A DNA stretch of 64,000 bases, from contig CAJINV010000003.1 of assembly GCA_905178155.1 (NCBI GenBank), positions 2,189,065-2,253,064 of the forward strand, read 5' to 3'. The stretch comes from Amoebophrya sp. A120 (taxonomy: Eukaryota > Protista > Dinoflagellata). This document shows, one piece after another, positions 802 through 58,700 of this stretch. Under the pieces are notes generated by a model. The model made no database searches and had not been told where the DNA came from. It saw only the letters and a list, made by a program, of their open reading frames with translations. The first letter of the stretch is position 1, and every line of letters starts with the position of its first letter. The position numbers and the translations under genes were made by a program.

Positions 802-1615
802 TTAGGCCTTGTAGAAGGACTTGACCTTGTTGTACAGGGCCTGTTTTGTGAATTTTGATGACGTACTTTTTCGATTTGGTGAGCAGGAGCAAGAACGGCA
901 AGACAAATCAGCACGACGTAAGTATACGTATAGCTTATGTCCATTTCGCGACAACGTCGCTCTCGCAGACTCACACCCGAAATCCATGCAAACGCATATT
1001 ATCATGAAGGCAAAGTAGAAGGCGCTAAGTACCTTTCCCTGGGCGGTCTTGCCACCGACCGGGCAGAATCCCTTGATGCCCAAAGCCTTGCGGGCCTTGG
1101 AGGTGGCGACGCCCCAGGCCGCGATCTTCTTGTAACCCTTCCTCTTCTTGGCGGCGGCGGAGGCCTTCGCGGAGACGACTTTTCCGGACTTGTTCTTCTT
1201 CAAGTCGCTCTTCTTGAGACCACCGGAAGTCTTGACCTTGGTTCCCTTGAACACGGAGGACTTGGCGCGCTTGCCCTTCGCGATGGTGGACTTCTTCATG
1301 GCCATCTTCTTCATGCCCATCTGTTTTAATTTTTTGCCTCATTTTATGGTTTGCTTCTGTGCCAAATTCCATTTGACTGTCCAGATGAGGAATCATCGCT
1401 TTCCTTCCAACAAACATTGTCATTCGCTTTTCTCCCAACAAACATTATCGCTTTCGCTTTTTATGCCCCACAGCAACACGAGAAAATGCACTACATACTA
1501 GCATTTGAAAAAAGTATGGAAACGTTATTTTCTGTACCTTCATTGACATCTTCATGGACATCATTTTCATCTTCATGGCCATTTTCATGGACATCATCTT
1601 CATCATCTTCGCCAT
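802..1615 (-). CDS. DVNP: Dinoflagellate/viral nucleoprotein (DVNP), 3 exons: 1615-1538, 1320-1033, 840-802 (134 aa)
   Basis: Core IAKGKRAKSSVFKGTKVKTSGGLKKSDLKKNKSGKVVS...ARKALGIKGFCPVGGKT..GKALYNKVK is the DVNP signature. Two phase-0 GT..AG introns (1537-1321, 1032-841) join a Met/Lys-rich first exon (MAKMMKMMSMKMAMK...). Confidence 0.92.
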
Positions 1616-7304: not shown

Positions 7305-7337
7305 GTGTTCCACCTATGTACAGGATAAGACGAAGCT

Positions 7338-7554
7338 GTTTGTCATGCTTGTCTGCCATGACTTTTAAATCTGTCCTGCACGTTACCCAACAGCTCCACT
7401 TTTCTGTGATGCAGAAACGCAGTTTGATGTCATGCAGAATAGGCAACAGTTAGAAGCTCAGAAACTTGTCATGCTGAGCCAGCATTTGTGGCCTCATCAT
7501 GAGACGCCACCCAGCATCACAAGTTTCCAGACCCAGACATTTTTGCAGTTGATA
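7338..7554. mobile_element. Truncated TIR element, family A (left TIR missing)
   Basis: Ends ttccagacccagacatttttgcagttgata; interior is the reverse complement of a 57596-57847-like interior. Confidence 0.85.
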
Positions 7555-7711: not shown

Positions 7712-7927
7712 TATGAAAGTGCACAACTCCCCCTCCCCCTCATTTGCGATGCAAAATCCCAAATCCAGCTGCTGCCTTGTAGCACTGTTTGCATGACAAA
7801 TCCTGGAAGCCCAAACAGCACTACACTCCAGTGCAAATTTGTCATGCAGAACCGGCATTCTTGCTGGTGCTTGTATTGTCGTTCATGCCATACAAATGAG
7901 GGGGAGGGGGAGTTGTGCACTGTCATA
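7712..7927. mobile_element. TIR introner, family E
   Basis: TIR tatgaaagtgcacaactccccctccccctcatttg / caaatgagggggagggggagttgtgcactgtcata; TSD gccac. Confidence 0.9.
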
Positions 7928-8519: not shown

Positions 8520-8754
8520 TATGGCGTTCTCAACTGTTACACTCTCAGCTGTTGCATGATTTGTCATGCAAATTCACAATCAGAATCGATGCGATCAAGC
8601 TGCTTAGCATGACAAATTCTCCAAGGCCTAAGCAGGCTGATACTCTGCGCCAAATCTGTCATGCAAGACGCGCAAGGTCCCTCGTTTCACTTTTGCCATT
8701 CTTGCATTACAGATTCATGTAACAGTTGAGAATGTAACGATTGAGAACCCCATA
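8520..8754. mobile_element. TIR introner, family F
   Basis: TIR tatggcgttctcaactgttacactctcagctgttgcatga / tcatgtaacagttgagaatgtaacgattgagaaccccata; TSD tggga. Confidence 0.88.
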
Positions 8755-8810: not shown

Positions 8811-8967
8811 TATCCTGTGCAAAAGTATCGTACTCGTAGTAATTGCAGTCATGCATTACAAATCGCCTTCCTACGCTAAAACAGCATGACAAATTCAATT
8901 TGTCAAGCTAAGGACAATTTGTCATGCTAAGGAAATTTGTAATGCAATTTATACTAGTACGATCCTT
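8811..8967. mobile_element. Truncated TIR element, family D (outer right TIR lost)
   Basis: Starts tatcctgtgcaaaagtatcgtactcgta, as at 19524; right TIR stops at tactagtacgatcctt just before the 39-bp repeat. Confidence 0.85.
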
Positions 8968-8972
8968 ATTTT

Positions 8973-9011
8973 GCAATGCGATCCCGATAGGTGGAACAGG
9001 ATAAGACGAAA
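8973..9011. repeat. 39-bp direct repeat, right copy
   Basis: Identical to 7266-7304. Confidence 0.95.
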
Positions 9012-9432
9012 ATTATTCGACAACACTTTCATAAAAAAGCTAAATACATTCCTTACGGTGTCATAGACAATGTGATTAATGTTGGTATTGTATTCAAGAC
9101 AAATGGCGAGATGTGCCACCCTGTTCGGATCCTTTGATAATATTCTATTTGAGTATAGTATTGAGTGAAGGAGGCGTTTCCGTCTTCCGTTTTTATTGCT
9201 CTCATTCAAGGTGGAAGAAAAGTTGAAACGTCCACCTGCAGCTCGCCCTCACAAACCGGATTTTCAAGAGGAGCAGAGAGAGAGATTGCACAGGAGTACT
9301 GCGGGTTGTACTACATGTCTTCATGCGCAAACGGGAACGTCGGCCGCGAGTCGTCGCTCTACGATGCTGTTTTGTGATGTTTCTGCCACCCTATGGCATG
9401 GAAAGAATTATCAGTATCGCTACGACGCATGA

Positions 9433-12400
9433 TTAGCCCGTCGGAAACGGCAGGTTTGGCAATGGCGGTGGCGAGCTCGGTACTGGCGGAGCACCTCCCA
9501 CTCCGTTGGATTGATACACCAGTTCGGGCGAATGGTACGCCGTGGGATGATCGGGGAGTTGTCCCTCGTTTCGTAGCGAAGCCAGCTGCTCTCCGGCCTG
9601 GTGTTGGCCCAAGGAGCTCCGCCGCGAATGCGACACGTAATGCTCCTCCGCGCCGTCATTGTACAGACCCTCCTTTTCGCCCTCCGGGGCGTTATCCAAG
9701 GTAAATCCGGCATCCAGCTTATCCTGTGTAAAAACGTACCCACACCAGAGTCAGGATGGGGATTTTGCAGCACAAACCTAGGAGCTTTTGTGAGTCACGC
9801 ATGACAAGTTGCACTCTGCAGCGTAGTGCAGGTTAGCAAGTGCAGCCGCATCACAGATTCATCAGCTCATCCTGTTCACAGCATCACAAATTCCAAAACA
9901 CGACTGGAAATGGCTCTCATGGGGATGCGCATTACAAGTCTTCCTGTCTTTGCAAATCTGCATTACAACTCTGGTGTGGGTACGTTTTTACTCAGGATAC
10001 AGCTTCCCAACCTTCTTGTTTGGCGTTTTCTTCATCGGCCGGTCCTGGATCTGATACCGGGCCGGTTCAAACGCGAAGCCTTGTGCGGTCAGACGTGCGC
10101 GGACGTAGAGGAGGTCGCTGTAGCGGAAAAATTGAGGATTTTTCAAAAAGAAAATCATTTCAGGAAGGTGCGACAACTCTGCTTCTATATTCTCAAGGTG
10201 ACAGTGAGAAAGCACGGCCCGTGTCTACGAATATCACTTTAAGAAGTAAGTACCTTCGCATGTAAGTGGTTGCGTCGTCGGTGTCTTTTTTGTCCTGTGC
10301 CCAGCTTGGTTTCTGTGAAATCAAATCGTATATGCTTTGCTTGCTTGGGACGGTTTCGTCTTTGCTCTGGTCCTTGCTTCCAGTGCGCAAACTGCTGAAA
10401 CCTGTCGTAACAAGATGGCGACTTGGTGTGGCGAGGCTAAATTTTTATTTTGTGCAAAATCAGGAATCTTTCTTTTGCGCACGGTCGACGAATTTAAATT
10501 TTGTTGCACGGCCAGGTCAACAATTATTATCGTCATCACATGAGCATCGCAACCAAAAAGCAGTCTCTCAAGTACGATCATTCTCCGGCCCGGGCGGCCC
10601 TCCGACGGGGTAGGAGTCGACTCGACCGCTCAGCAACTCCGTGCCCGAACGCCGCCAGTCGTGCACGCTGGAGCGGCCCTTCGGAGCCGGCCCGGGCGCG
10701 GAGGCCCCCATCAGACCCGCTGCGCGAGAGTTACCACTTTCCATCGCGCCCATCCCCTCGCGCAGTCCGGCGGCGCGCGAATTGGTGGGAACCACGGGGC
10801 CGGACGCCCCCAACCCGGACGACAGGTCCTGCGAGCCCGTGCCGCCGCGCGACAACAGCCCGCTGCGCTCGCGAGGCAGATCCCCCGCCAGGTGCGCCTG
10901 GGCGGAGGGGTTGTATTTTGACTTCTGCCCACTGTCCTCGTCTTTGGCTTTGCGAATCAGGTTCTTAACCATGTCTTCCGCGCGACGAATCTGGACCCGG
11001 GTTCCCTTCATGATCACCGCGCGCGGAATGCCGGCCGGGACATCCTGGTCAATGTTGATGTTGCAGCCGGTGGCAGTTTTGATCTTTTTGATCGTGTCCC
11101 CGGCCTTGCCAATCACCAACCCAACGTACTTCGGCTCCACCATGAATATCTGCTGGTGCTCCGTGCCGTCGTCGCTCTCATCCGCGTCCTCCTCGGAAAA
11201 CGTGCGGTGCCCGCTGGCTGCGCGCCAGTTTTCCTGCTCGTCGACGGAGTCCCGGCGTGAGCTGTCGCGCCGTGGCGGGTACGTGGGCGCGGTGCTCACC
11301 TGCAGATTCACCTCCTGGGCGGTTCCGGGGCCCTGGTGACCCTGGTCCGCGTGTGCGGTATTGGTCGCAGTTGCGTGCAGTTGCTCCTGCGCAGTAGTCA
11401 TCTGCTCGCTGCCTGTTGGTATGTCATTTTTTCGACAATCTAAATCCCTTGCTCTCGTTGCAGGAGGCGGAAAACAATCATTCACGAAGTGGTCAACGAC
11501 TGTGCGAAGAGGTGGTAAACTAAGTAAACGGGAATCTGAATCACAACCATCTACGAGTTATTTTGCTTTTGAAGGAGGAAAAGTCATCTGATCTGATACT
11601 TTTTGAGCCTCCCGCCCCTGGCTGCTGGTACTGAGCGAGAATTGCTGCTGAGAACCTGTTTGCCTCTTCCGCGGAACTGTCTTCGGACTGCTCGTGCTGC
11701 TGGGAGGCCGGATTTGTGCCAGATCCATAGCTACCCGCACTGTACATGTTCTGATGTTGTCCGGATGTTGGGTTACCTGCAAAGCAGTTGAGGTCACAAT
11801 TTATTATCGGCCGCACAGAAAAAGTTAAGGTAACTGGCCCCGGTAGGTGGTCGTGATCTTGCGATTTTTTCCTGTGCTTGATGAACGTGAATCGTGAGAA
11901 AGAAAAACCTCGAACGCTGAAGGAAGAAAACGACAAATACCATTCGTCGCAGAAGGCGGAAAAAGCCGCGCCCGCTCCCGTGCGGGTATCACAGGCTCGC
12001 AATCAAATGCGTTCCCGCCTTCGTGTGCCCCGGTCGGGAACAAGTGCTGCAGTTCGTAGAAATCTTGAAACTGTTCACATCGGATGAGCAAGTCCGGTTT
12101 CAGATATCGACCCAAAAACCAATTCCGCATTCTCTGATGCGAGTACGGTCCCTGGCGACTCCCGTCGTTGCCGCAGTAGTACCAGGGTTGCGTCAACAGG
12201 TGCAGAGGTGGTTGCACATGCGGAGGCTGATGGTTCTCGTAGCCATGATACCCAGCACCCGGTGCTGGGTATTGCATGGGTCCTCGTGCCGGACTGTGAT
12301 AGGCGTGCTGCGGCACAGCTCCGTTGTACCCCTGTCCCTGGTAGTGCTGCTGCCCGGGGTGCGCGGGCTGGTGCCCCGGCGAGTATGGGTTTCTTGCCGG

Positions 12401-16793: not shown

Positions 16794-19700
16794 CTACGCA
16801 CGAAGCTGTGCACGCGCCTTGTCCAGGATCTCCTTCTGAATTTTCGGATACGCGGGATTGACGGTCAGTACCTGCTGGCAGATCAGAATACACTCCACGG
16901 TCCGCTTCGCCTTTAGGTAGTTGAAGGCCAAACGAAATCCTACGTTTGCGCTATGACCACTCAAGTCCCACGCTTTTTCGTAGTGCGTGGCTGCGTCCTT
17001 GTGCCCTTGCTCCTTTTCGCAAATCAACCCGAGGCACTCCCACGCCTTGCCACTGCTGCGGTTGTGCATGGATGCAAGCTGACACAGGGTCCCAGCCAGG
17101 TCGTACTGTGATAGTGTTCATTAGAAGTCTCCGTGTTTTGTACGAAATTTGCCAGTCTTTCCACGAAACCAAAACGTGCGCAGGTGTCGAACAAAAAAAG
17201 CAACAGGATCAAGCCCGAAAAACAGGTCCTCAAACAACTGTATGTAAGTACTTTTCCCTGCGATATGTACAAATCCGCGAGCAGAAGCCAGGCCTTCTCG
17301 AAGTCCTCGGCCCACTCGGGATTGTAGGATTTCTTCGCGATTTCCGCGATGCGCTTCAGCTGGTTGCGGGCTTTGGTCAGCTGCTTGCTGATAATCAGGC
17401 CCTGCGCCATCGCGAGAACCCCGGGGACGAAGTTTTTGTCCTCGTTGTAGAACTCCATGAGCATCTGCAGTCCGCGGTCCACCTCCGTTTTTTTCTTCGT
17501 GAAAATCGCGTTCTGGGCCTGGTACACGCGCAGCCGCGCCATCAGTGCCGGATTCCGCTGCACGGAGGACGCCTCCTGATTCAGGAGTTCGTGGATGAGC
17601 AGCTCCACTTCCCGGGCGTGCTGTTCGCTGTGTTGCGTCAGGTCCTGCAGGCTGTCCAGGGACAGCTTGTTGGGGTCCGGGTAGAGGTAGATGTCGATCA
17701 TGGCCAGCGTCGCTTCCCGCCGAAATTCGGCGTCGCGCGTGCGCGCAAAGTTCAGGTCCACCAGGGCATCCGAGGCCCGGTTCATGCAGCGGTAGTACCT
17801 GCCGCGGCAGTACCGGAAACCGGGTTCCTGCTCCGGGTCTTATCAAAAGGAAAAATCCACCCTCCCCATATCAAAACGGAAATCTGTGATGCAGATTTGT
17901 TGTCACAAATCAGCTGTGTCATGCTACACGGGAAAAGATGCGGACTGTAGTGCTGGGTGGCGTGGGGGAGCCTTGCATCTTCAGCATGATAGGAGGCAGC
18001 TGAGAGTGGGAAACAGCATGACAAATTGCCTGTAAACGAGACCACGACTGCGGCTCTTGGCCTTCTAGCATGACAAGTCGATTTGTGTCCTCAAATTCTG
18101 CATCACAGATTTCCATTTCGATATTGGGAGGGGGGATTTTTCCGTTTGATAGGTCTTTGTACATCTTCAGGTGGTGCTTGGCGTTGTTCAAAAACCCTTC
18201 GTAGTCCTTCAACTTACCGCTGCGCTTCAGAAGGTAAACCAACCGACTCAAGGCGCGCCAGTCACCTTATTGATTGCGACGGTAGAATTCAGCGCCTTTA
18301 GTTTTGTTTACTTTTGGTATAAAATAACTGAGGAATTCATGATAGGAAAAAAAGAAAAAGTGTTGTAGTCGCTCTGGTGATGCTGCGGTAGCGGTTTTAA
18401 CCGCCGGAACGATAATAATACATGGTTTTTTCTCCAAGAGCTGTCGGTAGTGGTAGGTGGCGTCCCGGTACTCCTGGACGCCACCTTCGCTTCGCGCGCC
18501 GTTCGCAGCTAGCAGCATGAGAAGCTCGGCCATTAGGGTGGAGCCCTCGATGGCCACTTCCGACGAAGATTCCAATCGGAGCAGCACCAGCAACTGCCGT
18601 TCGCAGGCTTCGTAGTTGCCCTCCGCCATCTTCAACTTCGCCAAATTGAGCATGCTGTTGTAGATAGCAGTGACGTTTCGGTTCTTGTACAAAGAAAAGA
18701 TAAAAAATCATTGCCGAGTTTGATGTTCAGCCATGAGAGGCAACCTTGGGTTTCAGCCTGCAAAACAGGCCCACATATTTGCTTGAAGCGAAAAAAAGTA
18801 CTAAGATGGTAAACATCAAATTCAAAGAAAACTTACGCCTTCTCGTGTGCCTCATTGTGGCGCAGGCATTCGGAATAGAACTCCGTCGCTTCGTCGGGCT
18901 TCCGCTCCCGCGCGTCGTAGTATTCGGCAAGTTGGAAAGCAATGTCCGCGTAAACCTCCCGATTTCTCGCTAGTCGCTGATCGTCGTCCTCGGCTCGCAA
19001 CCGGTCCAACACCTCTTTCTGCAACTGCAGCGCGTGCTGAAACCGCTCGGCCGCCTGTGGTGCCGGGGGTGCCCCGTCCGAACTGCTAGCGTTGCTACCG
19101 CGCTGAAACGCGGTCAGCGAGGATTCCAAGTGCACGGTCGCAAGTTGCCGCAACAACTCGATCTTCTGTTGCAGTTGCCGCACCGTTTGCGCGTTGCCCG
19201 ACCCGTCGCCAACGTGTTGCAGCGCCTCTTCCAGCTCCTGCCCCGCGCGCTGCCAATTTTCCAGTTTCATGTGCAACTTGGCCAAATCTAGGCGCAGGTC
19301 GATGGCCTGCGGGTCCCGCTTGAGCGCATTGGCGTAGTAGTTCATACCCGTTTCGTAGTCGTGCGTCAGCACCAGTGCCGCGCCGATTTTGCGAATCAGC
19401 TCCGTGGCGTCAGCCCGTTTGTCCCCGAGAGACAACGCCTTCTCGAAAGTCGCGATAGCCTCTTGCGGCTCCCCGATGTCCAACAACGCCTCGCCCAGCG
19501 CCAAATAGTTGTCGACGTTGTCTTATCCTGTGCAAAAGTATCGTACTCGTATAAATACATTACAAATTTCCTCAGCATGAGAAATGAAATTTGTAATGCA
19601 GATTTGCCTTGGGAACAAGATTTGTAATGCAAGCCTTGCATTTATACGAGTACGATCCTTTTGCACAGCATATGTCTGGGTCTTGCTCCAGGATTTCGCG

Positions 19701-24123: not shown

Positions 24124-25540
24124 TCACCCTACGCTGAAGAAGCTGTTCGTGAGCGTCTCCATAGAGCTTGACGAGGGCGGTGGTGGCACCTCCTTCAGGG
24201 CTTCCAAGGCACGGTTTTCCGGGACGGCCGGTGCGTCGCCGATGTAGAAAAATTCAGTGTTTGGCGTTGAGAAAACTTCCGGTTGTTCCGGCGTTGCTGC
24301 GGGTCCTCGTCCCTGTCGACCCCTCTCCAACTCTTCAATCTCGCGGTTCAATTGCTCCTCCTTCTGCAACTCCTTTTGCTGCTCGCGGGTGGGTATGCTC
24401 TGCAAAAGTATCGTAGTCGGACTGATTGCAGTTATGCATTACAAATCTAGTGGCTGTCGGTAAATCCGCATTACAAATTTACACTTGTAATGCTGAGCCA
24501 ATGTGTATTACAATTTATACCGGTGCGATACTTTTGCAGTTCGTAGTGGGCTTGTATGTGAAGCCGCCGACGAGGAAAGTGGGTTTGTTCCGACTGGTAC
24601 CAGAAGACGCCCCGGTCTTCAAGTCCACGTCACCAGTGCTGATATCGATTTCCACAGGTCCTCCGGCGTCCGTGGTCATGTCATCGGGATGGCCACTGGA
24701 GTTGTGTGAATGTGACCGCGATGAACCTCCTGCGCTGGTTTCCGATGGCTCGGGTACTACTTGGTGCGCGGGGTAGTAAGAACTCCCCGGACCACCGCTG
24801 CCCGCGGACGGGTCCGGTCCCCGCACGACTGCGTCGCGGTACGACCGGGCTGACTGTCGAGAGTGTGAGGCTGGATAATTATTCCCAGCCGGAGTGGTGG
24901 ACGAAGACCCGCTACCACCGGTGCCCGATTTCCAACGACGCCTAGTTGTACCACTTGCGCCGGCAAAGCCGCTTCCCCCGTCTGGTGTGCTCTGTGGCGC
25001 GGTTGAGCCGCTCTGCGTCGAGGAGAGCCGGGTCATGCTACTTGTCGGCGACAGCCGATGGACGCTCTTCCTCTGGACTCCCGGAAGCGACAGAGCTGGC
25101 TGGCTTGCCGCACCACCACCTGCGGGAGAGCTGGCCGACGAAGCGGGCGAACGCAACGACGGTTTCCACGTTTCCCCGGCGGAAGACGCGCCAGACGAAT
25201 GCGCTGGGCTTGCATGCCTCGTCCCGCCCGTCTCCGATGTCGACCCTGCTCCTGTTCCGCCCGTGACAAGTCCAGCGGACACGACGCCCGGGCTGTCAGA
25301 AGTCGTAATTGCTTTCGGACGGCCCCCCGCTGCTGACCGCAGCGTGGGTCTCCAAGATGACTCTCCACGTCCGGCGGGCCGGAGAGCGAGAGCTTCGACC
25401 GATGACGTGGTTGTTCCTTCCATTATACACAGGAAGCAGAGTGCAGCCACCGCAGCAGGCCGCGTCGGCGCTCTCGGGTAGGCAGACTTTGACATATTTA
25501 GTGCTCCACGCTGGGGTACAAGCACGAGACTCCCGATCAT
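24124..25540 (-). CDS. Ser/Gly/Thr-rich hypothetical protein, possible signal peptide; 3' end uncertain
   Basis: ORFs 24515-25540 and 24124-24405 join in frame (YKPT|REQQKE) after removing 24394-24545; hydrophobic stretch AAVAALCFLCIM near the N-terminus. Confidence 0.6.
24394..24545. mobile_element. TIR introner, family D (diverged)
   Basis: TIR tatgctctgcaaaagtatcg / cgatacttttgcagttcgta; TSD gtggg. Confidence 0.85.
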
Positions 25541-32200: not shown

Positions 32201-33216
32201 CTTTTCATGTTGACGACAACCTCGGGATGCTGCTGGGAGAGGATTCCCGGCCCCTCCAGGGGGCAGGGGCTCCAGGAGTTTTATTGATCATCGCAGTGTA
32301 TCGAATTTATGAGTGCACTGTTTTCTAAAGTTCCGGGAAGTAGTTGCAGACCATCAAAACTCAAACAAGCATGCGCGTTACCTTGGCCTGCAGACCCTCT
32401 TCAACCTTCGACTCATATTGCACGGCGTCGGCGAAAAAACCGCGGGAATTGTTTGATCTAATTTTGAACCAGACCCCTACTTCGAGGGTTTGTGGCAAAT
32501 GCATAACCGACTGCAGGAGCTGGTCGAAGTGTTGCATCGCCGCTTCCTTGCCTTCTTTGAAGTCCGCGGCACTTACTGCCAGCGCACGAACGGTAGAGCA
32601 AGTCATGTGGTCCAGGTCCACCAAAAACCCCGACCGCTGGAACTTTTCCTGCGCCCCAGCTATGGTGAACGTCGATTGCTGAGCAGCACTCGCGCCAACA
32701 AACACATGATTGCCCACCAAATCGATCTTCAGTACCCCGTACACATTCAGTTTCTTCCTCTCCAGTTCGTTCAAAGTCGGTCGGTCGCGTCGAAGCGCAG
32801 CTCTAGCAGGGTCGAAATCGCTCTTCGGAAAGGCGTCCCCGTGGTCCGCTCGGATCCTGTCCACTTATGGATTGCAAATATGTCTGGGTCTGGAAGCCTG
32901 TGATGCTGGTTGGCGAATCCTGAGGACGCCACAAGTGACGGCTCAGCATGACAAGTTTCTGACTTGCTAGGTGTTGCGTATTCTGCATCACAAACCACGT
33001 TTCGGCATGACAGAAAAGTGGGGCTTTTCGGTAACGAGCATGACAGACTTTGGGGTCATGCTGGCACAGCATGACAGACCTTCCATTCTTCCAGACCCAG
33101 ACACTTTTACAATCCATACCACTGCTTTCTGAGCAACGAGGGCATCATTTTTCATTGCAGTAGGGGTCGTACCGACGTCCGTATCCTGCTTCGCGGGCGG
33201 CTGTATTGGAAGTTCT
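26224..33216 (-). CDS. Very large multi-exon hypothetical protein (low-complexity Gln/Ser/Pro, coiled coils); may be continuous with the 33679-37114 locus
   Basis: Same-strand ORFs 32361-32864, 31827-32198, 30475-31389, 28291-30321 and 26224-28038. In-frame joins across three TIR elements (QKAV|DRIRA; KVQG|AKAV...SMV|KSLNK) and a GT-AG intron (ENKQ|PEAAK). Confidence 0.6.
31391..31652. mobile_element. TIR introner, family A
   Basis: Perfect 31-bp TIR tatcaaatgtaaaaatgtctgggtctggaag; TSD tcacc. Confidence 0.93.
31700..31963. mobile_element. TIR introner, family C
   Basis: TIR tattgtgaggaaaaatcccccctccccata / tatggggaggggggatttttcctttcgata; TSD ccccc. Confidence 0.92.
32866..33118. mobile_element. 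TIR introner, family A
   Basis: TIR tatggattgcaaatatgtctgggtctggaag / cttccagacccagacacttttacaatccata; TSD ccact. Confidence 0.92.
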
Positions 33217-38922: not shown

Positions 38923-41900
38923 TTATGGCTTTTTGTTCTTCGCGAACAGGGCAGTTAAGCCGATGGGTCCCTCGAACAGTCCCTTGCGCAGCTTGTCGAA
39001 GTCCAGCTCGCCCTGTGCGTTGTAGTCTAGCGTGTGGAAGTATCCAAGAAAAAAACTGTGTTAGTGTAACTTTCTTTGGCTGACAGCATCACAAATTTGC
39101 TCTACATGACAGAGAAAACCTGTCATGCGTGGCTCGTAAGGGAAAATACACATGAAAAAAGGACTTCATGGCTGTGTGGCATGACAATTGTGACTGTTTT
39201 GCATTTTCTGCATCACAGATTTACACTTACACAGTTTTTTTCTTGCATAGGAAGATGCGGTTTCGGCGGGTCCGGGTGCCGATGGTCGTGGGCCCGGGTG
39301 GGTAGTGGATGACGTGCGCCAAGTATCGCATGAAAAAACTGTTTCACTGTGAACCTGTGATGCAGAGAACAAAACACCAAACTGTTTGTCTTGCTACACC
39401 TGCAAGACATTGGATTTTTAAGCGTGCTTTCCCTTGGGAAACGCGCATGGCAAATTTTCTGGGTCATGTGTAGCAAACTTGTGATGCGGTTCTTGCAAAA
39501 TCATCACAGTGAAACAGTTTTTTCGTGGGATACCAAGGCCTGGGTGAACTCGGTGGCGGACAGCGATCCGTTGCCGTTGTCGTCGATCATCTCGAAGATC
39601 TTGCGCTGCGTGTCGGTCTCCGCCAGGTTATCCACCTGGTACATCTCGCACAGGTGCTCCCGCAGCTGCGCAAACTCTTCCGTCATGGGGACGCGGCGCT
39701 CCGTATCCAAAGGAAAAATCCCCCCTCCCCATATCAAAGCGGAAATTTGTGATGCTGATTTGTGACCACAAATGAGCTTTGTATTGCACAGAGGCGCTGG
39801 GTCTAGTGGCGTATGGGTCTAGTAGGGGCGTATGGGTCTAGTAGGGGCGTATGGGTCTAGTAGTTCAGCATGGCAAACGGCCCCCCTTTAGGCCAGACAG
39901 CACGACAAATCGCTTCCATAATGGGGCGGAAGCTTCTGCCGTTGTCTTCTTGCAAGACAGATGTGATTTGTTACCTCAAATCCGCAACACAAAATTTTTG
40001 GGAACATGCCTTTTCAATATGGGGAGGGGGGATTTTTCCTCTCAATACTCCGGCGGTGCGGCGTCGCGCTCCATCTGCGCCTCGATCTCCTTCTCGCCGT
40101 TGAAGAGACCAGTATGGAACTGTCAGGTTTGAAATCGTCAAAGTTGAAATAATCTGTAATGCATAAAATGCATGACCCGAGGTACGTGTGTTGCAGAGCA
40201 GGCAAGTGAGGCCGATTGTAAGCCTGTTTGGGGTTACAGCTCGAGCTGCTAAAGTAGCACGAGAAAATCACTCTTCTTTGCCTAAACAGCATGACAAACT
40301 GGATTTAGGGACCACCGAAATTTGTCATGCGCCACTTGGAAACTGGGTTCCAACTGGCATCCATTTTATGCATGGCAAATTATTTCAACTTTGTCGATTT
40401 CAACTCTGACACATCCATAACCGGGCTTCCCGAAGTAGTCCCGGTGCCCGGGGTTCATGTCGGAGGGCGAGATCTTCATGCGGGTGCACCACACTTTGGG
40501 GTGTTTCGCCCACAGCTCGTCCTGCGACTTCACGAACATCCAGTCGTACCACCGTTTGAAGGCTTTCTGCATGTCCGTGTTCTTGTAGATCTTGGAGGTG
40601 TGGCGCTGCGCCTCGTTGTTGGTCCTCTTCCGCGACGCGTTGTCGCGCTTGCGGATCCACTTGTTGTAGGCCTTCTGCGAGCTGTACCGCTTGATGCCAT
40701 CCTTTCCAACCACGTACACGTCCTCGTCGATGAAGGTGTTGGCGTTGACCGCGTCCCGCACCGCGTTGATCCGGTCCGCTCTCCTGAGTAAAAACGTACC
40801 AACACCAGAGTCAGGATGAGGATTTTGCAACACAAGCCTAGGAGTTTTGTGAGTCACGCATGACAAGTTGCACTATGCAGTGTAGTGCAGGTTAGCAAGT
40901 GCAGCCGCATCACAGATTCATCTGCTCATCCTGTTCACAGCGTCACAAATTCCACAACACGACTGGAAATGGCTCTCATGGGGATGCGCATTACAAGTCT
41001 TCTTGTCTTTGCAAATCTGCATTACAACTCTGGTGTGGGTACGTTTTTACTCAGGATATCCTCCTCGTTGTGCTCGCGGTGTTTTTTCGCTACCTCCTTG
41101 GGGTCGATCCCCAGTACGGAGCCGAACTCCTCGAAGGACAAATCTCCGGACCCGTCTTCGTCCAACAGGTGCAACAGGTTGGCGCGGCGCTCGTACGCCA
41201 CCTCGTCGTCGGCGTCGGCGCTGGGGTAGCACATCTTGGCCAGCCCCACCTGGAACTCCTCCATGGAGACGGAGTTGGAGCGGTCGGTATCCAACAGCTG
41301 GTAAAACTTGTACCACCACGTCGTGTCCGCCATGCCGTCGGAACCACGCAACATCTTGCCGTACCTGTAGCGATTGTTCCGATTTGTGCGCAAGTTTCGT
41401 GGGAATTAGTGCATGATGATGATGTTACTTTCGATTTCCTGTTCACAAAATAAATGAAAATTCCCTGCTAACATGCCTACTCACACAATGAAAAATTCCT
41501 CGTCAAATTGCAACGCTCAAGATGAAAACTAGCCTGTTCAGTACTTGTGTGCCAGCCACACGCGGAAGTAGAGCAGTTCGTCCTCGACCGGAGCAAGGCA
41601 AAAACGCTTCATAGCGTCGACTTCCTTCCCGTCGTAGTAGGTAACCCAGTAGATGGGCTGTTTTCCGCTGTTGGGCGGCATCATGGTGATCGGCATGCGG
41701 CAAGTTCCCTGGTCTGGCGGGTCCAACCACACCGCGGCTCCAGCGCAGTAGACCTGTGATAGGACGACGAAATTTTTGATAAAATAGACCTGCCTTTTTC
41801 GTACATCTAAATTGAGTGAGAATAGCAGGGAAAAAAAGACGCGGTTATACTCTTTGTCTCGCAGTCGCGACCCATGCAAACAGAAGGTTGACATTACTAC

Positions 41901-42880: not shown

Positions 42881-45800
42881 TTACTTGCCAGGGGCCGTCG
42901 TACCTTTTTGCATCTCCTGTACACTGAAATCTTTGATTGCCTTCAAGAAGTTTCGATTCGATAAAATCCCAACGCCACGCGCCTTTGCTATTTTTTCAAC
43001 AGCTTTGGTTGAATTGCATTTGGTTTGCCTGATTAAGATCGCTGCCGTTATCGCTGCACTTCGGTTGACCCCCATCGCGCAGTGGACAAGCAGTCCCGGC
43101 AAAGTAGACCCTGCCGCGCCAATATCAGGGTTGGTGTTAGCACCCGCCGGTAAACAAGCCTTTTCCATTCGTTTTCGGGCACGAGCCTCGGCCTTGGACT
43201 CCTTCTTGGGTACAGAGCTGTTTGGAATTGAGGAATTTTTCGCAAGCACCGTGGAAGCCAGACTGCTTGTTTCGCTTTCAAGAGTGGCGAGCAAGCTCTC
43301 TACAAATGCGCAGCATTCTTCAAAATGCCGAGCGATGTCATAGTCGACATGGTCCTCGCAAGGCACTTCCAGATACCGAACCGGCGTCGCTTCTCCTTCT
43401 CGTTCGTTCGTCGCATCAGCCGCGCTCTTGGGTCCGGTCATTTTGGAATTCCGCCCCAAATTTTCATCATAAAACTTTTGAAGATGTATTCCATTCTCTG
43501 CGGACTGCAAGTTTTGGTCAAGTTGCGACAGCGTTTCCGCGGCGATTTCCTTGCATCCGGCGGAAGGGCAACAATTGATCACGCCGCGGACGCGGTGTCA
43601 AGTGGTCCAAGTTCCCAAGATGATTTTACGCATGTAACCGATTTTAAAAATTTCGCGCCCCGGGTTCGCGCAAATGTGACCAAGCGCGTAGGCAGGTTCT
43701 AGCGCTGCTTTCCTCGCGCCTTGACATAGTGCGCCGAAGCGGATGCGTCCGTCGCAATGGTACAAGTGCGACGCCCGACCACTTTCTGTTGGTCACAGGT
43801 GCGCACGCAAATTCACAGGGGCCGGGCCCCCAGCAGCGCCACACAGTGCCACACCCGCGCCAGAAGCTCACAAAACTTCTCACGCAGCCGCAACCAATCG
43901 GAACAACACTCGGCGCTCTCGGTCATGGTGCCCCCAAAGCCCGAAGTCGTGACCCAGCTTCGAACCCGCGCTCACTCAGAGCGCGGGCACAGATAAATAA
44001 GCTGGCAGGATCGGGGGCTCCTGATCTTACGAGCAAGAGCCCCCAACCTCGTCCCGGCACCATAGCGAGATCCACGAAAGCGGACTCCCGATCTCGCTGA
44101 TCTCGTGCCGATCATTCACCGGCCGATCTCGCGGCGAACTCCGGCCGATCTCGCACCCCCTCCCGCCGATCTCGCTGCGATATAACTCACGGCCAAAATT
44201 GATCTTACTGGCCAGCGCCCGCAGGTCGAAAATTCCTTCCCATTTTCGCTGTAGAATGAATTTCCGCCCGCGAGATCAACGAGATCGGGCACGAGATCAA
44301 CGAGATCGCGGGGGAGATCAGGCGGGAGACCATGAATTTCCGCCCGCGAGATCAGCGAGATTGGGCACGAAATCAACGAGATCGCGGGGGAGATCAGGTG
44401 GAGATCATGCGACGTCGATCGCTTTGATATCGACCGTTCTCGCGTCGTCCCAATACGAGATCGTAGCGCGGCCCGCGGGGAGGCGCCGGCTTTCCCAGCC
44501 GGCGAGGCCGCCGGCGTTCACGACCGATATCGCCAAGCCGGGGCTGCTACTTCTGCAACGTCGCTCGGCGGGCGCTTCGAAAATTACGCAGCGCCCTTGG
44601 TTGCAGTTACAGAGCGCCGCCGCACCGGCGCGGTCAAGCCGAAAGGCTTCAGAGAGAACCGCGGGCAGGTCTTTGGCCGTGCCATCTCTCGCGAATTTCA
44701 TGACGCTGAGTCGACCAGCCGCTGCGGAGGCATTGCGCAGAACGGCCGAGGGGTTTACGCTATGCCGACGAATCCCCGGACAGACAGACCACGGCAACGC
44801 TTTGGTCAAGTTGCGACAGCGTTTCCGCGGCGATTTCCTTGCATCCGGCGGAAGGGCAACAATTGATCAACCGACGTTCTTTTTTCTGAAAATTGTTCGG
44901 CGCCCGCAGGATGGGGCCCAGGCGCAGCGGGGCCGGGGGCAACGGCGAGAGCGGGAGGCGAGGAGGCGGGGCTGGCGGATATTGGCAAGGCCGATGCAGT
45001 GGCAGCGCAGGCACCGCCTGCCCGCACGCGCGCGCCACAAGCCGTGCCGGCCGGCGGGCCCTGGACATTGTGGGCCCAGACGGGCGCGGCCAGCCTGTTG
45101 GCCAGCGGGCAGGAGCCGAGCTATTGCATGACGCGGCCACCAATGCATCTAGTGCCGGCGGCGCCGGGGCCCGGGGCCTTCGCCCTCCGTTACATGCGCC
45201 GGCCCTTCGGTCCACAGAGAAGACAGAACCCGCCGGCCGCGCACAGCTTTGGGCGCGCGGCGGCAATTGTCCCACCCCGTGCAAGCCCCACCACGCCAAG
45301 GGCTTCGCGCAATGCGCCCAAGTTTGCCGGGGCCGGGGCGACGGACAGGGTGGGAACGAAAAGAAAGGCGGGCGGCGCGCAAAAGCGGGCCCCGCCCGGT
45401 GGTTCTATTGCAGAAACTAAACAGGCGAGGCGCGCCCCGCATATTGCGTTGCCGGGCCCGCCTGGTGTCTGTCAGTCTTCCGCCCCGATTTGCGGGGGCG
45501 TCTGCTGGCCTTCTTTGCGTTGGTCCTGGTTTCCCGCGTTTTTTTCGCACGACATCCCCGGGCCAAATGTGCACGAGAGTGCGCTGGCCCTTAAAATAAA
45601 AGCGCCGGTCGCGCCGCGACCTTTTGGGTAGCCTAGCTAGCGAAGAGAATGAACGGCCGACGGCCTCCCATCAATCAGAACCCCGGCCCGGGCACGGCGT
45701 AGATGCAGCCGGCGCGCAAAATGGGGGGCCACTCTCATGGGCGTGCGTGCTTGCGAAGCAAAGAGAACCGCTACAATTTTGCGCGCGGCCTCGGCGTGTC

Positions 45801-47012
45801 TCGCGGGCGCCCCTTGGTGGCCATGGGGCCGGCTTGGCGTGGTCTGCGGAAAAGTTGTGCTTCCTCCCTAAACCACAACTTTTCCCGGACTCCGCTCGTG
45901 TTTGAGGGTAAAAAGAAGCTGCACAACGCCCAAGGGGGGCAGAAAAAGACAGCCACAGGTCGTGCGTAACCTAATGCAGCATGGTATGGCTGCGAGGGAA
46001 ATTCGCACGCAGCGATACCATGCAGCATAACCTCATGCCCGATGCTATCCCTGTGTGTGTGGGGGAGTGCGAATGTTGCTGCTTGGGGATAGCATCGCGC
46101 AAAAGGTTACGCGCGACGGTGTGCAGCGGCTGCGGCAGCCGCTTGTGGCGAAAGAGGGGATTTGTAATGCGGAGAAGAGCCCGGGTTGCGGAGAACCCGA
46201 GGCTCCGGGCTTTCCCCATTTACCCACAACCCGAGCCCCGAGCTCTGGGGAGCCCCGCACTCCGCATTTGTAATGCGGAGAGCCCGACCTTTCCGCCCAT
46301 TTGTAATGCGGTCTTTCTCCCGCATTTGTAATGCGGAGAGCCCGACCTTTCCGCATTTGTAATGCGGAGAACCGGAGGCGCGGTCTTTCTCCAACCGGAG
46401 GAAGCGGAGTTTGCGAATTTGTGATGCGGCTTTTCTCCTGCGGGGAGAAAAGCTGCATCTAAATCCGGCCGGTTTTCCAATTTTGTAATGCAGTTTTTCT
46501 CCACCCGATCGTTCGAGCGGAGAAAAACCGCGCGCAAAACAAGTAGCTTTGCGCGAAAAAACGGGCACAAGCCCTAGGAAAAGCGCAGCTTCTACCCCGT
46601 CCGGAGCGGGAAAAGTTGTAAGCGGGTGGAGCCCCATTTGCTTCCTCATTCTCGTAGGTCGCTAGTTTCATTCTCGTGACAGTGTATGCTCTTACTGGGG
46701 TCAAATTGTATTTTGTCCGTTCATATCCGCGACGATTTCCTTGCATCCGGCGGAAGGGCAACAATTGATCACGCCGCGGACGCGGTGGCTACGCAGAAAT
46801 TCCAAATCTACGGCCGCCTCCAGATTTCCGAGGTAGAGGTTCAGTCCCACTGAAGCTCCCCGAGACAGAGTGGCGATGTAATGTACGGAGCTTCCAAATG
46901 CCTGCGAACCAAGGGTTCCGTGGTAATACCTATCTTCGGACGGATTCAAATGGTGGTCGATGAGGGCAATGAGAGGCTGAACCTCCTCGAGAACAGAGGC
47001 CGAGGAAGTCAT
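42881..47012 (-). CDS. Dual-specificity protein phosphatase, split by a 3.1-kb insert
   Basis: 5' part NLYLGNLEAAVDLEFLRSHRVRGVINCC; 3' part YLEVPCED...HFEECCAFV...LLVHCAMGVNRSAAI...RGVGILSNRNF with an intact HCxxGxxRS motif. Confidence 0.85.
44085..44410. repeat. GATC-rich foldback-like repeat with a 76-bp tandem duplication
   Basis: GATCTCG units at ~44085-44180 face CGAGATC units at ~44270-44405; 44256-44331 is repeated from 44332. Confidence 0.75.
46160..46495. repeat. Degenerate tandem array of atttgtaatgcggagagcccgacctttccgc-type units
   Basis: About 7 copies of TTTGT[AG]ATGC, the same motif found inside the TIR introners. Confidence 0.8.
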
Positions 47013-52700: not shown

Positions 52701-55700
52701 GCGCGTATTCGTTTTCCTGTTTGGCCTTCACTTCTTCCAGCTGGGTCCGCAGCAGCGAGACGGCTTTGTCGTGCTCCAGTTGCAGGGCATCGCGCTCGTG
52801 CTCAACTTCTCGTCGCAAAATGTCCTCCGTGTCGGCCTGCAGCTCCGCGCGCAACGCGAGCCGCACGCACGCGGTTTCCTCTTCCAGGCACCGCTTCCAC
52901 TCGGATTCAACCTTCTCTTTTTCCTCCAGTGCCTGCTGCTCGAAACAGAGCTTTTCGTTCGCGTGCTTGGCGATCAGCTCGGCCTTTTCCTGCTCCGAAC
53001 GCGCTTGCGCAGCAGCGATGTCTTCATTCAGTTTCGCAACCTTTTCATCGAGGTCTCTTTTGAGTTCCGCAACTGCTTCTGCGTGGCTTTCCTCTTTTTC
53101 GCGGAGCACTGTGGCATGGTCCAGTTTCAATGCCGATATTTCCTCTGCATCTCCTGCCCGGGTGGCGGTCAACGCGCTGCGCAGCTCTTCCACGGTGACG
53201 CGATGCGTTTCTTCCATTCGGTTTACTTCCCCAACGTGCTCCTTTCTCACTCTTTCCAGGTCCGCGGCGTGCTGTGCTTCCAGCGTCGTTTTGTCCAGGC
53301 CCGCAAGATCGGTCATTTCGTTGCGCAGGGTTGCCAGCTCATTTTCCCAGTACGCGTCGCGCTCCTTGCCTTCGCGCGCGCACTCCATCTTCAGGTCCGT
53401 CACGATGCGGTTCCGCTCTTCGGTCAGTTCCTTCTCGCGTTCATACAAACTCGCAACATTTTCTTCCGCCGCCTTCTTCGCTTCGGCTTCCAGCGCGGCG
53501 ATGCGCTTTGCGAGGTCTGCCTTGTCCTCCTCGGACGCGGACAGGGCTCTGGCAAGCTGCTTCTCCAGGTCCTCACAGCGCCACGAGTAGGAGACTTGCA
53601 GTTCGCGCAACAGCGCTGGCACGTCACTCGTCGCGTCTACTGCGTCCAGTTTTACTTCTTCGCTATTGTTGAAGCTGCTGCTGCGCCCTGGCATAATTTC
53701 CCGGCGGAAGGCTTTCACTGCGTCGCGGACGACGGTCGCGAGTTCTGCTGTTTCTGCCCGTTGCTTCTCTTCGAGTTTTGAAACGTTTGCGTCGTGCTCT
53801 TCCAAGGCGACGGACATGTCGTGCGCGCGGCCCTCGCGCTCCACTGCAAGCTCCTCGCGGACGTGTTGCACTTCCTCCCGAAGCTGCGAAAGTTCAACCT
53901 CCTGCTGCTGCTCCCGTGCGAGCAAGGCTTCTTGTTCCAGGGTGCTCTTTTCTTCTTGAACGGACGACAAAGCCTGAATTTTGTCGAGCTGCACGGTCTG
54001 CAACTCTTGCAGGGTGGCCACCATGGCCTCGGAGTCCTGCAGCATTTGGTCCACGTTGGCAAGCCGCTGTAACTCGGCGGCCACGTCGTCGAGGGAGCTG
54101 CACTCCAGTCCGTGTGCCTGGCAGTAGTCGAGGAGAGTCTTCTGCTTTTGCGTGTGCGATTGCAGATCGTTTTCCATCTCCTCGTGCACGAGCGCCTGTT
54201 CCGCGAGTTCGTCTTGCAGCGCACGCAATTTCGCGTCCTGTTCTGTTTGGAACGTAGTCAGCTGCTCCTCGCGCTCCGCCAGTTTCTGCTGCAGCTTCAG
54301 CAGTTCACCTTGCCGCTCCTCGTTGAAGCCTCGCACGGTGTCGAGCTCGTCTTGCAGTTGTCTCGACTGGGTTTCGGCCGTGCTGGACTGGTTCGCGAGC
54401 TGTCCACGGACCTGATCCAACTCGCGTTGCAGTGCGTCTTTCTCCCGAGTTACCGCGTCCTTTTCTTCGCGCACCACCTGCAACTGCGTCTCGGTCAGAG
54501 ACTTTTCACCCAGTGCCGTCTGCAAACGACTCTCGGTCGCGGATTGCTCTTCCTGCAGCGGCATCAGAAAGCGCTCGCGAAGGTCGGCCTCGCGCTTCTC
54601 ATAGTCGGTGCGCAGCTGTGCCAGCGCCGTCGCCTTTTCGCTTTCCAAGACGCCCCGCGATTCCGCGAGTTCGACGGCGTGCGCCTCTCCGGCTTTGCGG
54701 AGCCGCGCTTCACACTCATCTGCCTTAACGGCGAGCTGCTCCAGTCTCTGCTTTTCGAACTGCTTCTCCAGTACCGCCTGGCTGGCGGCCAACTCCCGCT
54801 CGAGGTCCCCGGCGAGATCTTGCCGCAGTTGCTCCTGCCGCTTTTCCCACTCCTTGTCGCGCTTCTCCAGGGCCCACTGCAGAGCTTCGTCGCTGGTCTT
54901 CTTCAGTTCCGTGCGAATCTCCACCTCAAAACGGTCGCGGTCGCGGTCCGCCTCGTGTTGCAGTCGTGTTCGCTCCGCCTTCACCCGCTCAGGAAGTTCC
55001 ACGTCCGAGAACCGCTTCTGCGCCACCTCCACGGCCTCCCGGGCGCGACGCTCCGCAGCGTCCACTTCGGTCTGCCAGTGTCGAGCCTGCTCCACCCGTT
55101 CTGCCTGCAGGGCCGCAGAGAGCTGCTCTCGATGCTGTCGTGTTTGCGTAGAAAAAATCACGAAGGAATTGTTCGCTCTCGAAATTATACGACACAGTCA
55201 AACAACACCAAAACCGGCGTGCGCAAAGGGGATACCAAAATTTTGACTTGAAATTATACCAACAATACTTTACTAGATACAACACCCCAGTACCTCCGCC
55301 TCCCGCGTCGCCAGTGTTCGATCGTACTGCAGCTGCAGATCTTCGCGGAGTTGCTTTTCGTTCTGGAGTAACAACTCACTGTGACTGTTTTGCAACTCTT
55401 TTTCCCGCGCCAAGAGTTTTTCCTGCGCCTCGTGCACGTGCTTGCTGTACTCGGCCTGCAAGTTTTCCTGGTGCTGTAAGAGGCTTTCGCGCTCGCGCTG
55501 GAAGCGCTTTTCGTACTCCGCGTGTCTGGTTTCGTAGCTCTGCTCCAACTCGGCCAGCTGCCGTTGGATGTTTTTTTCGTACACCTCCATGGCCTGGTGC
55601 TTCTCCAACACTTTGCGTTCCGCAAGCGCGCAGCGCTGGTCCGCCTCTATCCTATGTAAAAACGTCCCCACCCCATAGTCAAGATGGGGAATCGGCTAGA

Positions 55701-58700
55701 CAAATCCACAAGCTTTGGCTGTCTTGCATGACAAATTTGGAGTCGTAGTGTAGTGCTGTTTGAGCTAGCTTGGCAGCATCACAAATCTAGTATATCATGC
55801 AGATTGGAGCAAGACAAATTCAAATTGCAAAACACAACTATAAAATAAGTAAAAATGCTTCTCATGGGGCTCCGCATGAGAAATATTTTCAGCATGCAGA
55901 TTTGCAATACAACTATGGGGTGGGGACGTTTTCAAATACGATAGCCTCCGACCGGTACTTGTCGGTGATGGCCACCTTTTCGCCCTCGTGCAGGCTGTGC
56001 GTATGAATGTGTCAGGATTGAAATATTGAAATAGTTTGTCATGCATATAACGCAACGCAGAAAATGCCTGTCTTGCAGAGTAGGCAAGGGAGGCAGATTG
56101 TCAGCCTGTTTCGAGGTAGAAACAGAGCTGCTAAAGTAGCATGACAAAAGGCGTCTTCCTTAATACCCAAACAGCATCACAAACTGCATTTCGGCTCTAC
56201 TCAAATTTGTCATGCGCCGCTTCGAAATTGGGCTTGCAACTGGTATCGATTTTATGCATTACAACTGAGGTATTTCAACTTTGTCGATTTCAACTCTGAC
56301 ACATCCATAGTGCGCGGCCTCCAGCTCGTTTTGGAGCTGCTCGCGCATCTCCCTCGCCTGCTCCAGCTCCCGCGTGGCGGACCGCGCCTGCATGTCCTTC
56401 TCGTGCAGCTCTTCCTGCAGCTCCGCGCGGCTTTTTCGCTCCTCCTTCCACTTCCGGACGTACTCCTCCCGCTCGGTCTGCAATTCTCTGATCTCGGCGC
56501 GGAGCGCCACCGCCTCGGCCTGCAAGGTTTGCTCCTGCGATTTCAAGCGCCCCGCGGACTCCGACAGGGAGACGCGCAGCGTTTCGTTTTCGGAACGGAG
56601 TTTCTGCAGGTTCGTGCTGTCCTCCAGCTGGTTATATCGGCGGTTACGGCCGCCCGCCTTGTCCACGTCCACTCGCAGGAACTGCGCAGGGGTATTGTCC
56701 ATGTCGGCGTAGCCGGAAAACTCCAGCGAAGTGTTTACCGCGCTGTCCACGGTCTTCGTGTTCCGCAGCACCGCCACGCCCTTCTTTTGCACGTCCTGCA
56801 ACTTCTGCTGCGCGACCCGCTCGCGACGCGTCAGTGTGTCAATCTTCGCATCGGCCTCCTTCTTGAACTCGCTTAGTTGCGTCACACGGTCGACTATGGC
56901 GGCAAGGTCCAGTTTGGCATCAAGCTCAGCGAATTTGAACCCCGTGCTGGTTGACGTATTCAAGCTGGCCTGCGATGATATTCTTTTTGAGTGCACCAAC
57001 GGAGATAAATCAATGCTCTAGAGCCAAAGACAAAATGGCACATCAGACGCGCGATAGGACATCAACGCACGCTTGAAAAGAACTTGTTTTGGGAATAAAA
57101 CAAACAGACCGATCAAGCAAGCCAACAAGATCGACCAAGTCATTCAGTACGTCGTGCGCTCCCGCGGCGGCGTCTGCAAGTGAGGAGATGCGGAGGAGAA
57201 TATCTTCTCGCTCCTGGAGTTGCGTTTCCAATATCCTGAGTAAAAACGTCTCCATACCAGAGTCAACGTGGAAAATCTGCTAGACAAATCGGCCAACTTT
57301 GGTTGTCTCGCATGACAAGTTTGTCCTCGTAGTGCAATCCTGTTTAGCTAGTTCAGCAGCATCACAGATCTAGCCTATCATGCTATTTCTAGCATCACAA
57401 ATCCCAAAACGCGATTAGAAAAAGCTTCTCATGGGGCTTCGCATGAGAAACTTTTTTGGCATGCAAATTCGCATGACAACTCTGGGGTGGGGATGTTTTT
57501 ACTCGGAATATCCAAATCCACGCACTTGCCTTCCGCGTCCTCGTAGCCGTGGCGTACTTCGCGCTCGCGCTCGGACAAGTCGCGGACTTGGGTTCTATGC
57601 ACTGCAAAAATGTCTGGGTCTGGAAACTTGTGATGCTGGTTGAGAAAGACGAGGACGCCTCAATTGACTGGCAAGCATGACAAGTTTTAGGGGTGCTACA
57701 GTCTTGGTGTTTCTGCATGACAAAGTGAGCTTCTGCATGACAGAAAAATGGAGCTTTTGGGTAATGTGCATGACAGACTTGAGAATCATCTCAGACAAGC
57801 ATGACAAACTTCCATTCTTCCAGACTCAGACACTTTTGCAGTTCATAGGTTCGCAGTTTGAGCAATTCGGAATCCGTCTCGGCCGCCTGCTGCTCGAACT
57901 CTTCGAGATACCGCGCAAACTCCGCTTCCACTTGCGCCAAGGCTTGCTGACAGCAGGGCTTCGGACCCGTCGTTGTACTATCCATCCCGCCGGGGGTCGA
58001 CGAGGACTTGCTGCCTGACCGGGCCCCCGCGGACGGCGCTTTAGAAGTGACGCCCGGACTGTTCGCAATGCTCCGCGGGCCCCCGGACGAGGAAACCTTG
58101 AGCAGAAGCTTGCTGAGCTCGTCCTCCTTGCGGTCCAACTCCATCTGCAGCCGCATCGCCAGACTGCGGTAGTCCGTGATTTGGTGAATCTTGGGTCGGT
58201 TCTGCACCCGCATGGCGCGGCTGCCGAATTCCAACGTCGACTGCGTCTCCTCCACGTCGCGGTCGAGCGGCGACACCGTGACAATCAGAGCGGTTTTCGC
58301 CGTGCCGCCCAGCGAGTCTTGCAGCAGTCGCGTCAGTTTGCTGTCGCGAAACGGAATGTGTGTGCAGGAAACATCGGTGAGCGCCGCGATGCAGTTGCCC
58401 AAGGCGGAGAGACTCAGGTTGATCCGCCGAGCCTCCCCGAGCCGGAGTCCCCAGGCGTTGGTCTTCTTGACGCGCTCGGAGCCGGCCAAGTCCACAATGT
58501 GGAACCGTGAGAGGACGCAGCTCCCCCCGGTCTGCAGCTCGCGCTTCAGAATCACGACGGCGTGCGACCGGGAACTGTTCTTGTTCACCATGGTCGCAGC
58601 CTCGGCCCGCCGGTGCTCGGCGTCGCGGATCAGGCGCATGCAGGCCTCCGCGCTGTGCACGCGCAGCTGCTCGCAGTTTTCCAGGATGATTCCGTCGCGG

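Follow-up and report, generated by a model that had tools for sequence, protein, structure and literature searches.

A helically phased internal motif common to short inverted-repeat elements of Amoebophrya sp. A120

Inverted-repeat elements in the window and in related contigs

The window, i.e. the whole stretch of 64,000 nucleotides that was analysed, contains a kinesin gene whose reading frame is joined four times by in-silico removal of an element together with one copy of its target-site duplication. For the focal element, this operation joins the frame of the gene, for which Pfam gives Kinesin, and the element is predicted to be a non-canonical intron. Its features, including copies of the internal motif GCAT[GCT]ACA[AG], and those of the other elements in this gene are listed below (strand is given where one is assigned).

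57596..57847, focal non-autonomous element with terminal inverted repeats (TIRs), family A / fam2, 252 bp, interrupting the kinesin reading frame
57591..57595, left 5-bp target-site duplication, GGTTC
57848..57852, right 5-bp target-site duplication, GGTTC
57596..57625, plus strand, left TIR: TAT, 7 variable bases, A-run, family-specific inner part
57818..57847, minus strand, right TIR
57628..57636, minus strand, motif copy GCATCACAA, oriented toward the left end, ~3.3 turns away
57675..57683, plus strand, motif copy GCATGACAA
57715..57723, plus strand, motif copy GCATGACAA
57735..57743, plus strand, motif copy GCATGACAG
57768..57776, plus strand, motif copy GCATGACAG, 33 bp after the copy at 57735
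57799..57807, plus strand, motif copy GCATGACAA, 31 bp after the copy at 57768 and ~4 turns from the right end
57232..57510, family B element in the kinesin gene, 4 exact motifs
56002..56309, family H element in the kinesin gene, 5 exact motifs
55648..55943, family B element in the kinesin gene, 2 exact motifs

Other features of the window are the following.

805..1338, minus strand, DVNP gene (Pfam PF19060, E 8.7e-17), marking the window as dinoflagellate
7337..7554, left-truncated family A element, 4 exact motifs
7712..7927, family E element
8520..8754, family F element, whose four sites alternate in orientation at intervals of 46-49 bp
8811..8957, family D element, damaged at its right end, 4 exact motifs
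9720..9999, family B element; further copies at 21024-21308 and 40780-41058
17841..18151, family C element in a TTC21-like gene
19729-20039, inverted family C copy in the same TTC21-like gene
19524..19672, family D element; second copy at 24394-24545
21386-21638 and 31391-31652, further A-type ends
31700-31963 and 39704-40047, ends related to family C
32866..33118, sister copy of family A, 6 exact motifs
39041..39249, family G element; further copies at 36080-36248 and 39324-39532
40113..40419, family H element
46162..46491, minus strand, array of 7 exact motifs inside the GC-rich insert 43598-46725

Short methionine/lysine-rich coding repeats lie near the DVNP gene (window 805-1620). The same ~39-bp sequence adjoins both damaged elements (window 7268-7305 and 8975-9013), which suggests a local rearrangement. 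The GC-rich 3.1-kb insert 43598-46725 is located in a dual-specificity phosphatase gene, with a 62-bp duplication on both flanks, a third partial copy of this duplication at 44791-44869, and CGAGATC repeat arrays at 44050-44450. It has one element-type end, at 46725, and its seven-motif array is placed 230-560 bp inside that end. Neither a partner end nor a Pfam match was found for the insert, which is possibly one end of a long relative.

To extend the sample, an end-anchored motif-pair pattern was run through 17 of 64 parts of a metagenome collection, yielding 153 loci, of which 146 are on contigs with the prefix JACKZZ01 and 7 come from other records. The JACKZZ01 contigs carry the same families as the window, with identity up to 98%, and none of the 7 remaining loci matches the element library. 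Elsewhere, the pattern gave 1 viral and 13 prokaryotic matches, none fitting the library, and a three-motif pattern in viral contigs produced 107 loci without a single TIR element. Window and metagenome contigs together comprise 612 kb of non-redundant DNA with 403 element calls. Clustering was performed on 388 elements of up to 400 bp (366 from the metagenome scan), 373 of which fall into 14 families of 3-89 members. Because the search pattern required one 30-34 bp pair near an end, the spacing tests described below count families once, drop those pairs, or use the families of the window.

In general, the elements are 109-370 bp long, non-coding, present in many copies, and bounded by TIRs (~20-60 bp in window elements) with TAT...ATA ends and 5-bp target duplications; their in-silico removal joins reading frames. 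TAT is found at 777 of 806 element ends, and TAT or TAC at 792, given that the finder required TA. Positions 11-14 of the TIR are A in 664-760 of the 806 ends, most families having an A-run at positions 11-15, with the full run missing in families E, F, and H. Positions 4-10, located between the fixed TAT and the A-run, often differ between the two ends of an element and are substituted at 1.2 times the interior rate. An exact 5-bp duplication accompanies 19/22 complete window elements and 349/403 element calls, and a 6-bp duplication none of the 403; the finder behind these calls required at least 4 of 5 duplication matches, and the same 5-bp flanks appear without that filter. Masked interiors link families {0,2}, {5,6}, and {7,10,13, weakly 1}, and because of linked interiors and shared ends families were pooled into 9 independent sets before spacing was tested. 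The families had been described in an earlier note as unrelated and yet all carrying the motif; the motif is indeed common to them, but "unrelated" was an overstatement in view of the shared TAT ends and linked interiors.

Some longer elements were also observed. Two of them (L121 778-1562 and L178 8577-9435) have different ends and share ~800 bp of GC-rich cargo with GAGAGG repeats, 72-87% identical and without a Pfam match. In a family A element (L163 10538-11509), a short duplication containing a copy of the motif borders an insert of ~700 bp. The 470-bp element L150 2285-2754 has a different 24-bp TIR and resembles L152 6334-6489; to judge by these ends, the two make up a second transposon class.

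Abundance, spacing, and conservation of the motif

In the 64-kb window, GCAT[GCT]ACA[AG] has 94 exact matches, compared with 4.04 +/- 2.25 in 100 dinucleotide shuffles, and the free base in GCATNACA[AG] matches is G, C, or T in 93/94. The 22 complete elements, totalling 5,623 bp, hold 77 of the 94 copies; the others are in two truncated elements (8), in one array (7), or single (2). Elements have 11.9 copies per kb, compared with 0.49 for other non-coding-like DNA and 0.05 for coding-like DNA as separated by a simple codon model, with five shuffled control motifs at no more than 0.28. As the earlier note anticipated, ordinary DNA is not equally dense in the motif, elements exceeding other non-coding DNA 24-fold. 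Non-element non-coding DNA nevertheless holds 92 copies against 13 expected, a 7-fold enrichment that counts against the transposase reading set out below; coding-like DNA holds 10 against 5 expected. Families have 2-8 sites, and at least two are kept in 383/388 elements. In 3/388 elements no site reaches 10 bits, and two of these three span open frames longer than 1.6 kb. Where long elements contain foreign inserts, only the element-derived parts have exact motifs. No Rfam match was obtained in the window, and Tandem Repeats Finder detected no array over the motif set of any complete element there; its rows touching elements or motifs are 8896-8945, 39804-39863, and 46261-46370.

The motif starts listed in the earlier note for the focal element (57675/57715/57735/57768/57799) and for its sister copy (32946/32985/33005/33038/33069) are exact, the former set being incomplete for want of the sixth, reverse copy at 57628. 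The family B copies quoted there were recovered too, except that 9767 is GCAGCACAA, with one mismatch. The family C pair given as 17883/17915 is shifted by one and begins at 17884/17916, where 17916 is GCATGACAC, also with one mismatch, while the family D pair 19590/19621 has the right spacing and true positions 19591/19622.

Gaps of 31-33 bp, read in that note as about three DNA turns, exceeded chance when each family was counted once: among 70 family-level sites there are 22 direct pairs at this distance vs 2.4 expected (0/3000 permutations). Opposite-orientation pairs at 45-49 bp number 12 vs 3.0 expected in the same set of 70. The common unit is a direct pair three turns apart, in which the spacer between paired sites varies from family to family. 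Of the autocorrelation peaks predicted near multiples of 10.5 bp, the one at 31-33 bp was present, but direct pairs at 9-12, 20-22, and 41-43 bp amounted to 0, 1, and 0.

A period scan from 8 to 18 bp, from which the 30-34 bp direct pairs were omitted, has its peak at 10.4 bp with a mean cosine of 0.44, the largest of 200 block-jitter nulls, in which intact pairs were moved as blocks, being 0.37. The best reference point of this fit is the C of ACA, and it is stable when one group is left out. Taking one family from each of the 9 independent groups, in all 12 choices, the phase was equalled by 0-3 of 300 nulls at 10.4 and by 0-15 of 300 at 10.5; when only the window's own 9 families were used, the figure was 1 of 500. 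Pairs in phase at 10.4 include 26/39 direct, 12/14 convergent, and 30/38 divergent ones, and the best period by family ranges from 10.08 to 10.56. A 16-bp alternating lattice was rejected as the main rule (scores of 0.28-0.32 vs 0.44 for 10.4 bp without the 30-34 pairs). Family B, on which the earlier note also drew and whose sites are all in one orientation, does not keep the 10.4 phase (-0.2) and fits best at 10.1 bp. Together with the weak phase of families 7, 8, and 11 (about 0.1), this counts against the transposase reading.

Phase extends to the element ends. The outermost site is located ~3.2, 4.2, or 5.2 turns from the end, 27 of 28 falling within -0.15 to +0.38 turn, and with one end taken per independent group the median R is 0.65 (p about 0.015). 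Element length is not quantised in turns (R 0.12), which again counts against the transposase reading. Outside the motifs, A-tracts and conservation show no clear periodicity, and outside the elements no 10.4 phase was seen. The proposal that a double-stranded-DNA-binding protein coats one face of the helix is consistent with the 10.4 period as far as double-stranded DNA and a single face are concerned, but a continuous coat does not agree with a unit formed by a three-turn pair. Given the period, the use of both orientations, and the tie to the ends, we infer that a putative protein bound to double-stranded DNA acts with the element ends.

Substitutions were counted on trees of 365 elements in 12 families, using a context-matched background rate. 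For the seven core bases of the motif, the observed/expected ratio is 0.17 along internal branches and 0.37 along terminal ones (terminal range 0.35-0.39), the free middle base 1.2 and 1.0, and the inner TIR 0.28 and 0.57; since motif sites and columns were chosen by score, apparent conservation is inflated and these rates are somewhat low. The rate for the motif in resident copies, after insertion, was at first 0.3-0.5 and becomes 0.5-0.6 after correction for alignment and search pattern, with intervals of 0.06-1.26 that include 1; some constraint on residents may thus persist, a point against the transposase reading. Phase-breaking insertions are common but nearly all private (136/145 of those of +3 and 37/38 of those of +6), suggesting that residents tolerate the loss of phase and that such copies rarely spread.

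Insertions in element interiors (window, L108-L260) peak in size at +3 (153 distinct) and +6 (39). Among clean cases, 49/86 at +3 (where chance gives 11%) and 10/17 at +6 (where it gives 0.4%) are tandem duplications with one junction base changed, in many instances to the complement of its flanking neighbour. Their appearance is that of hairpin-type excision footprints left by elements that make 3- and 6-bp duplications; in exons such footprints would add one or two codons. Footprints of 5 bp are rare; the introners studied here therefore seem to leave few.

Candidate readers of the motif

The best explanation, to which we assign a probability of roughly 0.55, is that the motif copies are binding sites of the elements' own candidate transposase, likely of integrase type, which copies the introns. 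Transposition is favoured by the way the sites keep phase with the ends and by their stronger conservation along internal branches. Copies of one DNA-binding protein would occupy the short element next to one another, on the model of Tn7-type transposases at spaced end sites, and the loaded protein would bend the element and join up its two TAT ends for cutting and joining. A single trans-acting enzyme may serve all families, as is suggested by the terminal TAT/A-run and the phased motif, which are common to them while inner TIRs and interiors drift. That the enzyme would be of integrase type is suggested by the TA...TA ends, by the length of the duplication (5 bp), and by a similarly built A120 family in the literature. 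The elements would be removed from RNA independently, via the terminal hairpin and the duplication. Several observations count against this reading in addition to those mentioned above. Pfam transposase or integrase domains were found neither in 20 frames of the window nor in 74 frames from long elements and flanks (612 kb), the motif does not duplicate TIR sequence, and motif pairs persist in the four predicted GT-AG introns described below. Furthermore, the text of Farhat et al. reports no putative transposase in A120 and rejects general mobilization by a transposase (PMC7789003).

The shared motif suggests that very different families rely on one machine, and the phased motif provides a signature for locating the missing autonomous element. 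Being shared, selected, and phased, the motif can also serve as bait for the protein, with a built-in control in the comparison of in-phase and half-turn-shifted arrays.

Less probable, though the strongest of the alternatives, is that a host or domesticated DNA-binding protein reads the phased motif and marks chromatin, whereupon an altered spliceosome lacking U1 would remove the stretch co-transcriptionally. Under the same tentative account, elements might have spread because the mark makes insertion into exons harmless, and the putative protein could double as a bending cofactor for transposition. The account agrees with a motif common to families with different inner TIRs, with the retention of at least two sites in nearly all elements, with the constraint that persists on terminal branches, and with the text of PMC7789003, according to which U1 is undetected in A120 or A25. 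Motif pairs also persist where elements have decayed; direct pairs at 31-33 bp in unmasked sequence number 14 (two in the window insert, one on a duplicate contig). Pairs at 32-33 bp occur in four predicted GT-AG introns without TIRs, in both transcript orientations (L147 4569-4742, L117 8481-8616, L153 2367-2479, and L172 2314-2428), these being hand-chosen joins as the automatic intron caller was too permissive; such pairs may be remnants. Yet a chromatin mark needs no phase lock to DNA ends, most non-element non-coding DNA lacks the motif (0.49/kb), and no 10.4 phase was seen outside elements. Private phase-breaking insertions are frequent, 21 of them hitting unfished motif sites vs 28.8 expected, and the corrected interval for constraint on resident copies includes 1. 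Should the binder be a host factor needed for splicing, it would amount to intron definition from DNA.

A related but doubtful proposition is that the motif is a double-stranded-DNA signal for introns, by which a transposase-derived or host protein on one helix face directs the U1-less spliceosome in any orientation and at any border. If true, the mark for moving would also license splicing, and some ordinary-looking introns would have kept it after losing their transposon ends.

That there is no specific binder appears improbable. The spacing would then be a relic of internal duplication in a few founders, or the motif would tune bending or wrapping by nucleosomes or DVNP. Some families do share interior ancestry, periods of 10.1-10.5 bp also fit wrapped DNA, and family B fits 10.1; however, the spacer in 32-bp pairs differs by family, seven specific bases are conserved around a free middle base, phase holds in 9 independent groups, and motif-free sequence shows no clear A-tract or conservation periodicity.

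Action of the motif in the transcript, with opposite copies pairing as stems or an RNA-binding protein reading it, is very improbable: the focal element does fold strongly as RNA into a long hairpin (z = -5.4), with predicted pairing of 0.78 for motif bases vs 0.61 for other interior bases, but family B has its sites in one orientation with motif-motif pairing of 0.02 and is split 9 vs 9 between the two orientations relative to the host frame, complementarity of mirror sites at the free base is no more frequent than independence predicts (e.g. 32/88 vs 32.1), and the scan supports a period of 10.4 but nothing at 10.8-11. The earlier argument that both orientations favour recognition of DNA over RNA is thus supported, as elements overall are oriented 63 vs 80 to the host frame (n=143, host strand inferred from the longest frame) and mirror sites lack covariation.

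Relation to known systems

In structure, the window elements match the published introner elements of Amoebophrya A120, with splicing predicted. These introners, ~30,000 elements making up 17% of the genome, are described with TAT, 7 variable bases, and at least 3 A, with short direct border repeats, and as ~240-nt repeated introns, all as found here, and that text states their mode of movement and U1-less splicing without fixed borders to be unknown (Farhat et al. 2021, PMC7789003). Published A120 family lengths of 106, 148, 160-165, 252-261, 278-279, 305, and 319-349 fit the families presented here, and family 38 (808 bp) is annotated as "Ginger, 5-bp TSD, TA/TA Termini", with integrase-like homology (Gozashti et al. 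2025, PMC12130899). The elements are thus known already, while the internal motif, its conservation, and its phase are well supported here, and the text and supplement text of both papers contain no description of the three (figures and sequence files may differ), nor does literature including PMC11453091 and PMC9860276 give a prior account of motif or phase, as far as its text goes and apart from what figures or further supplements could hold.

IS3EU/GingerRoot elements resemble those studied here in TA...TA (TAY...RTA) termini, TIRs of at least 30 bp, and little target sequence preference, an integrase-related transposase being the expected partner (PMC10045372, PMC6839031, PMC12730594). Their duplications are 6 bp instead of 5 bp (same sources), for which reason our elements are not filed under this group. 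Unlike in IS3EU/GingerRoot, TAYGG is present in only some of our families, and the integrase-related DDE transposase of that group was found in none of 94 frames (612 kb of non-redundant DNA). The main text on GingerRoot has 0 matches for "subterminal" and mentions no subterminal repeat.

MITE subterminal repeats bind transposase, and in Emigrant/Lemi1 (as in hAT and CACTA cited in the same text) short repeats inside the TIRs, in both orientations, are bound cooperatively (PMC1636448). The elements described here are MITE-like as short, non-coding, multicopy sequences with TIRs and target-site duplications, in which conserved repeats of the interior keep a fixed distance to the ends and are predicted to bind protein. 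According to the same source, the repeats of Emigrant are partial copies of its TIR and confined to a single family, whereas the present motif is distinct from the TIR and extends over 14 families. It is also phased over up to 21 turns, in elements that are predicted introns as well.

Tn7-type elements likewise make a 5-bp duplication, and their TnsB sites are much longer than the 9-10 bp motif. In Tn7/CAST, each end has several TnsB sites together with IHF, site spacing follows the helical pitch, and sites are held tight to the terminal dinucleotide; a host bending factor is a possible further similarity (PMC10201428). These elements are bacterial and autonomous, with TG ends, unlike the ones studied here, and no sequence relation is claimed.
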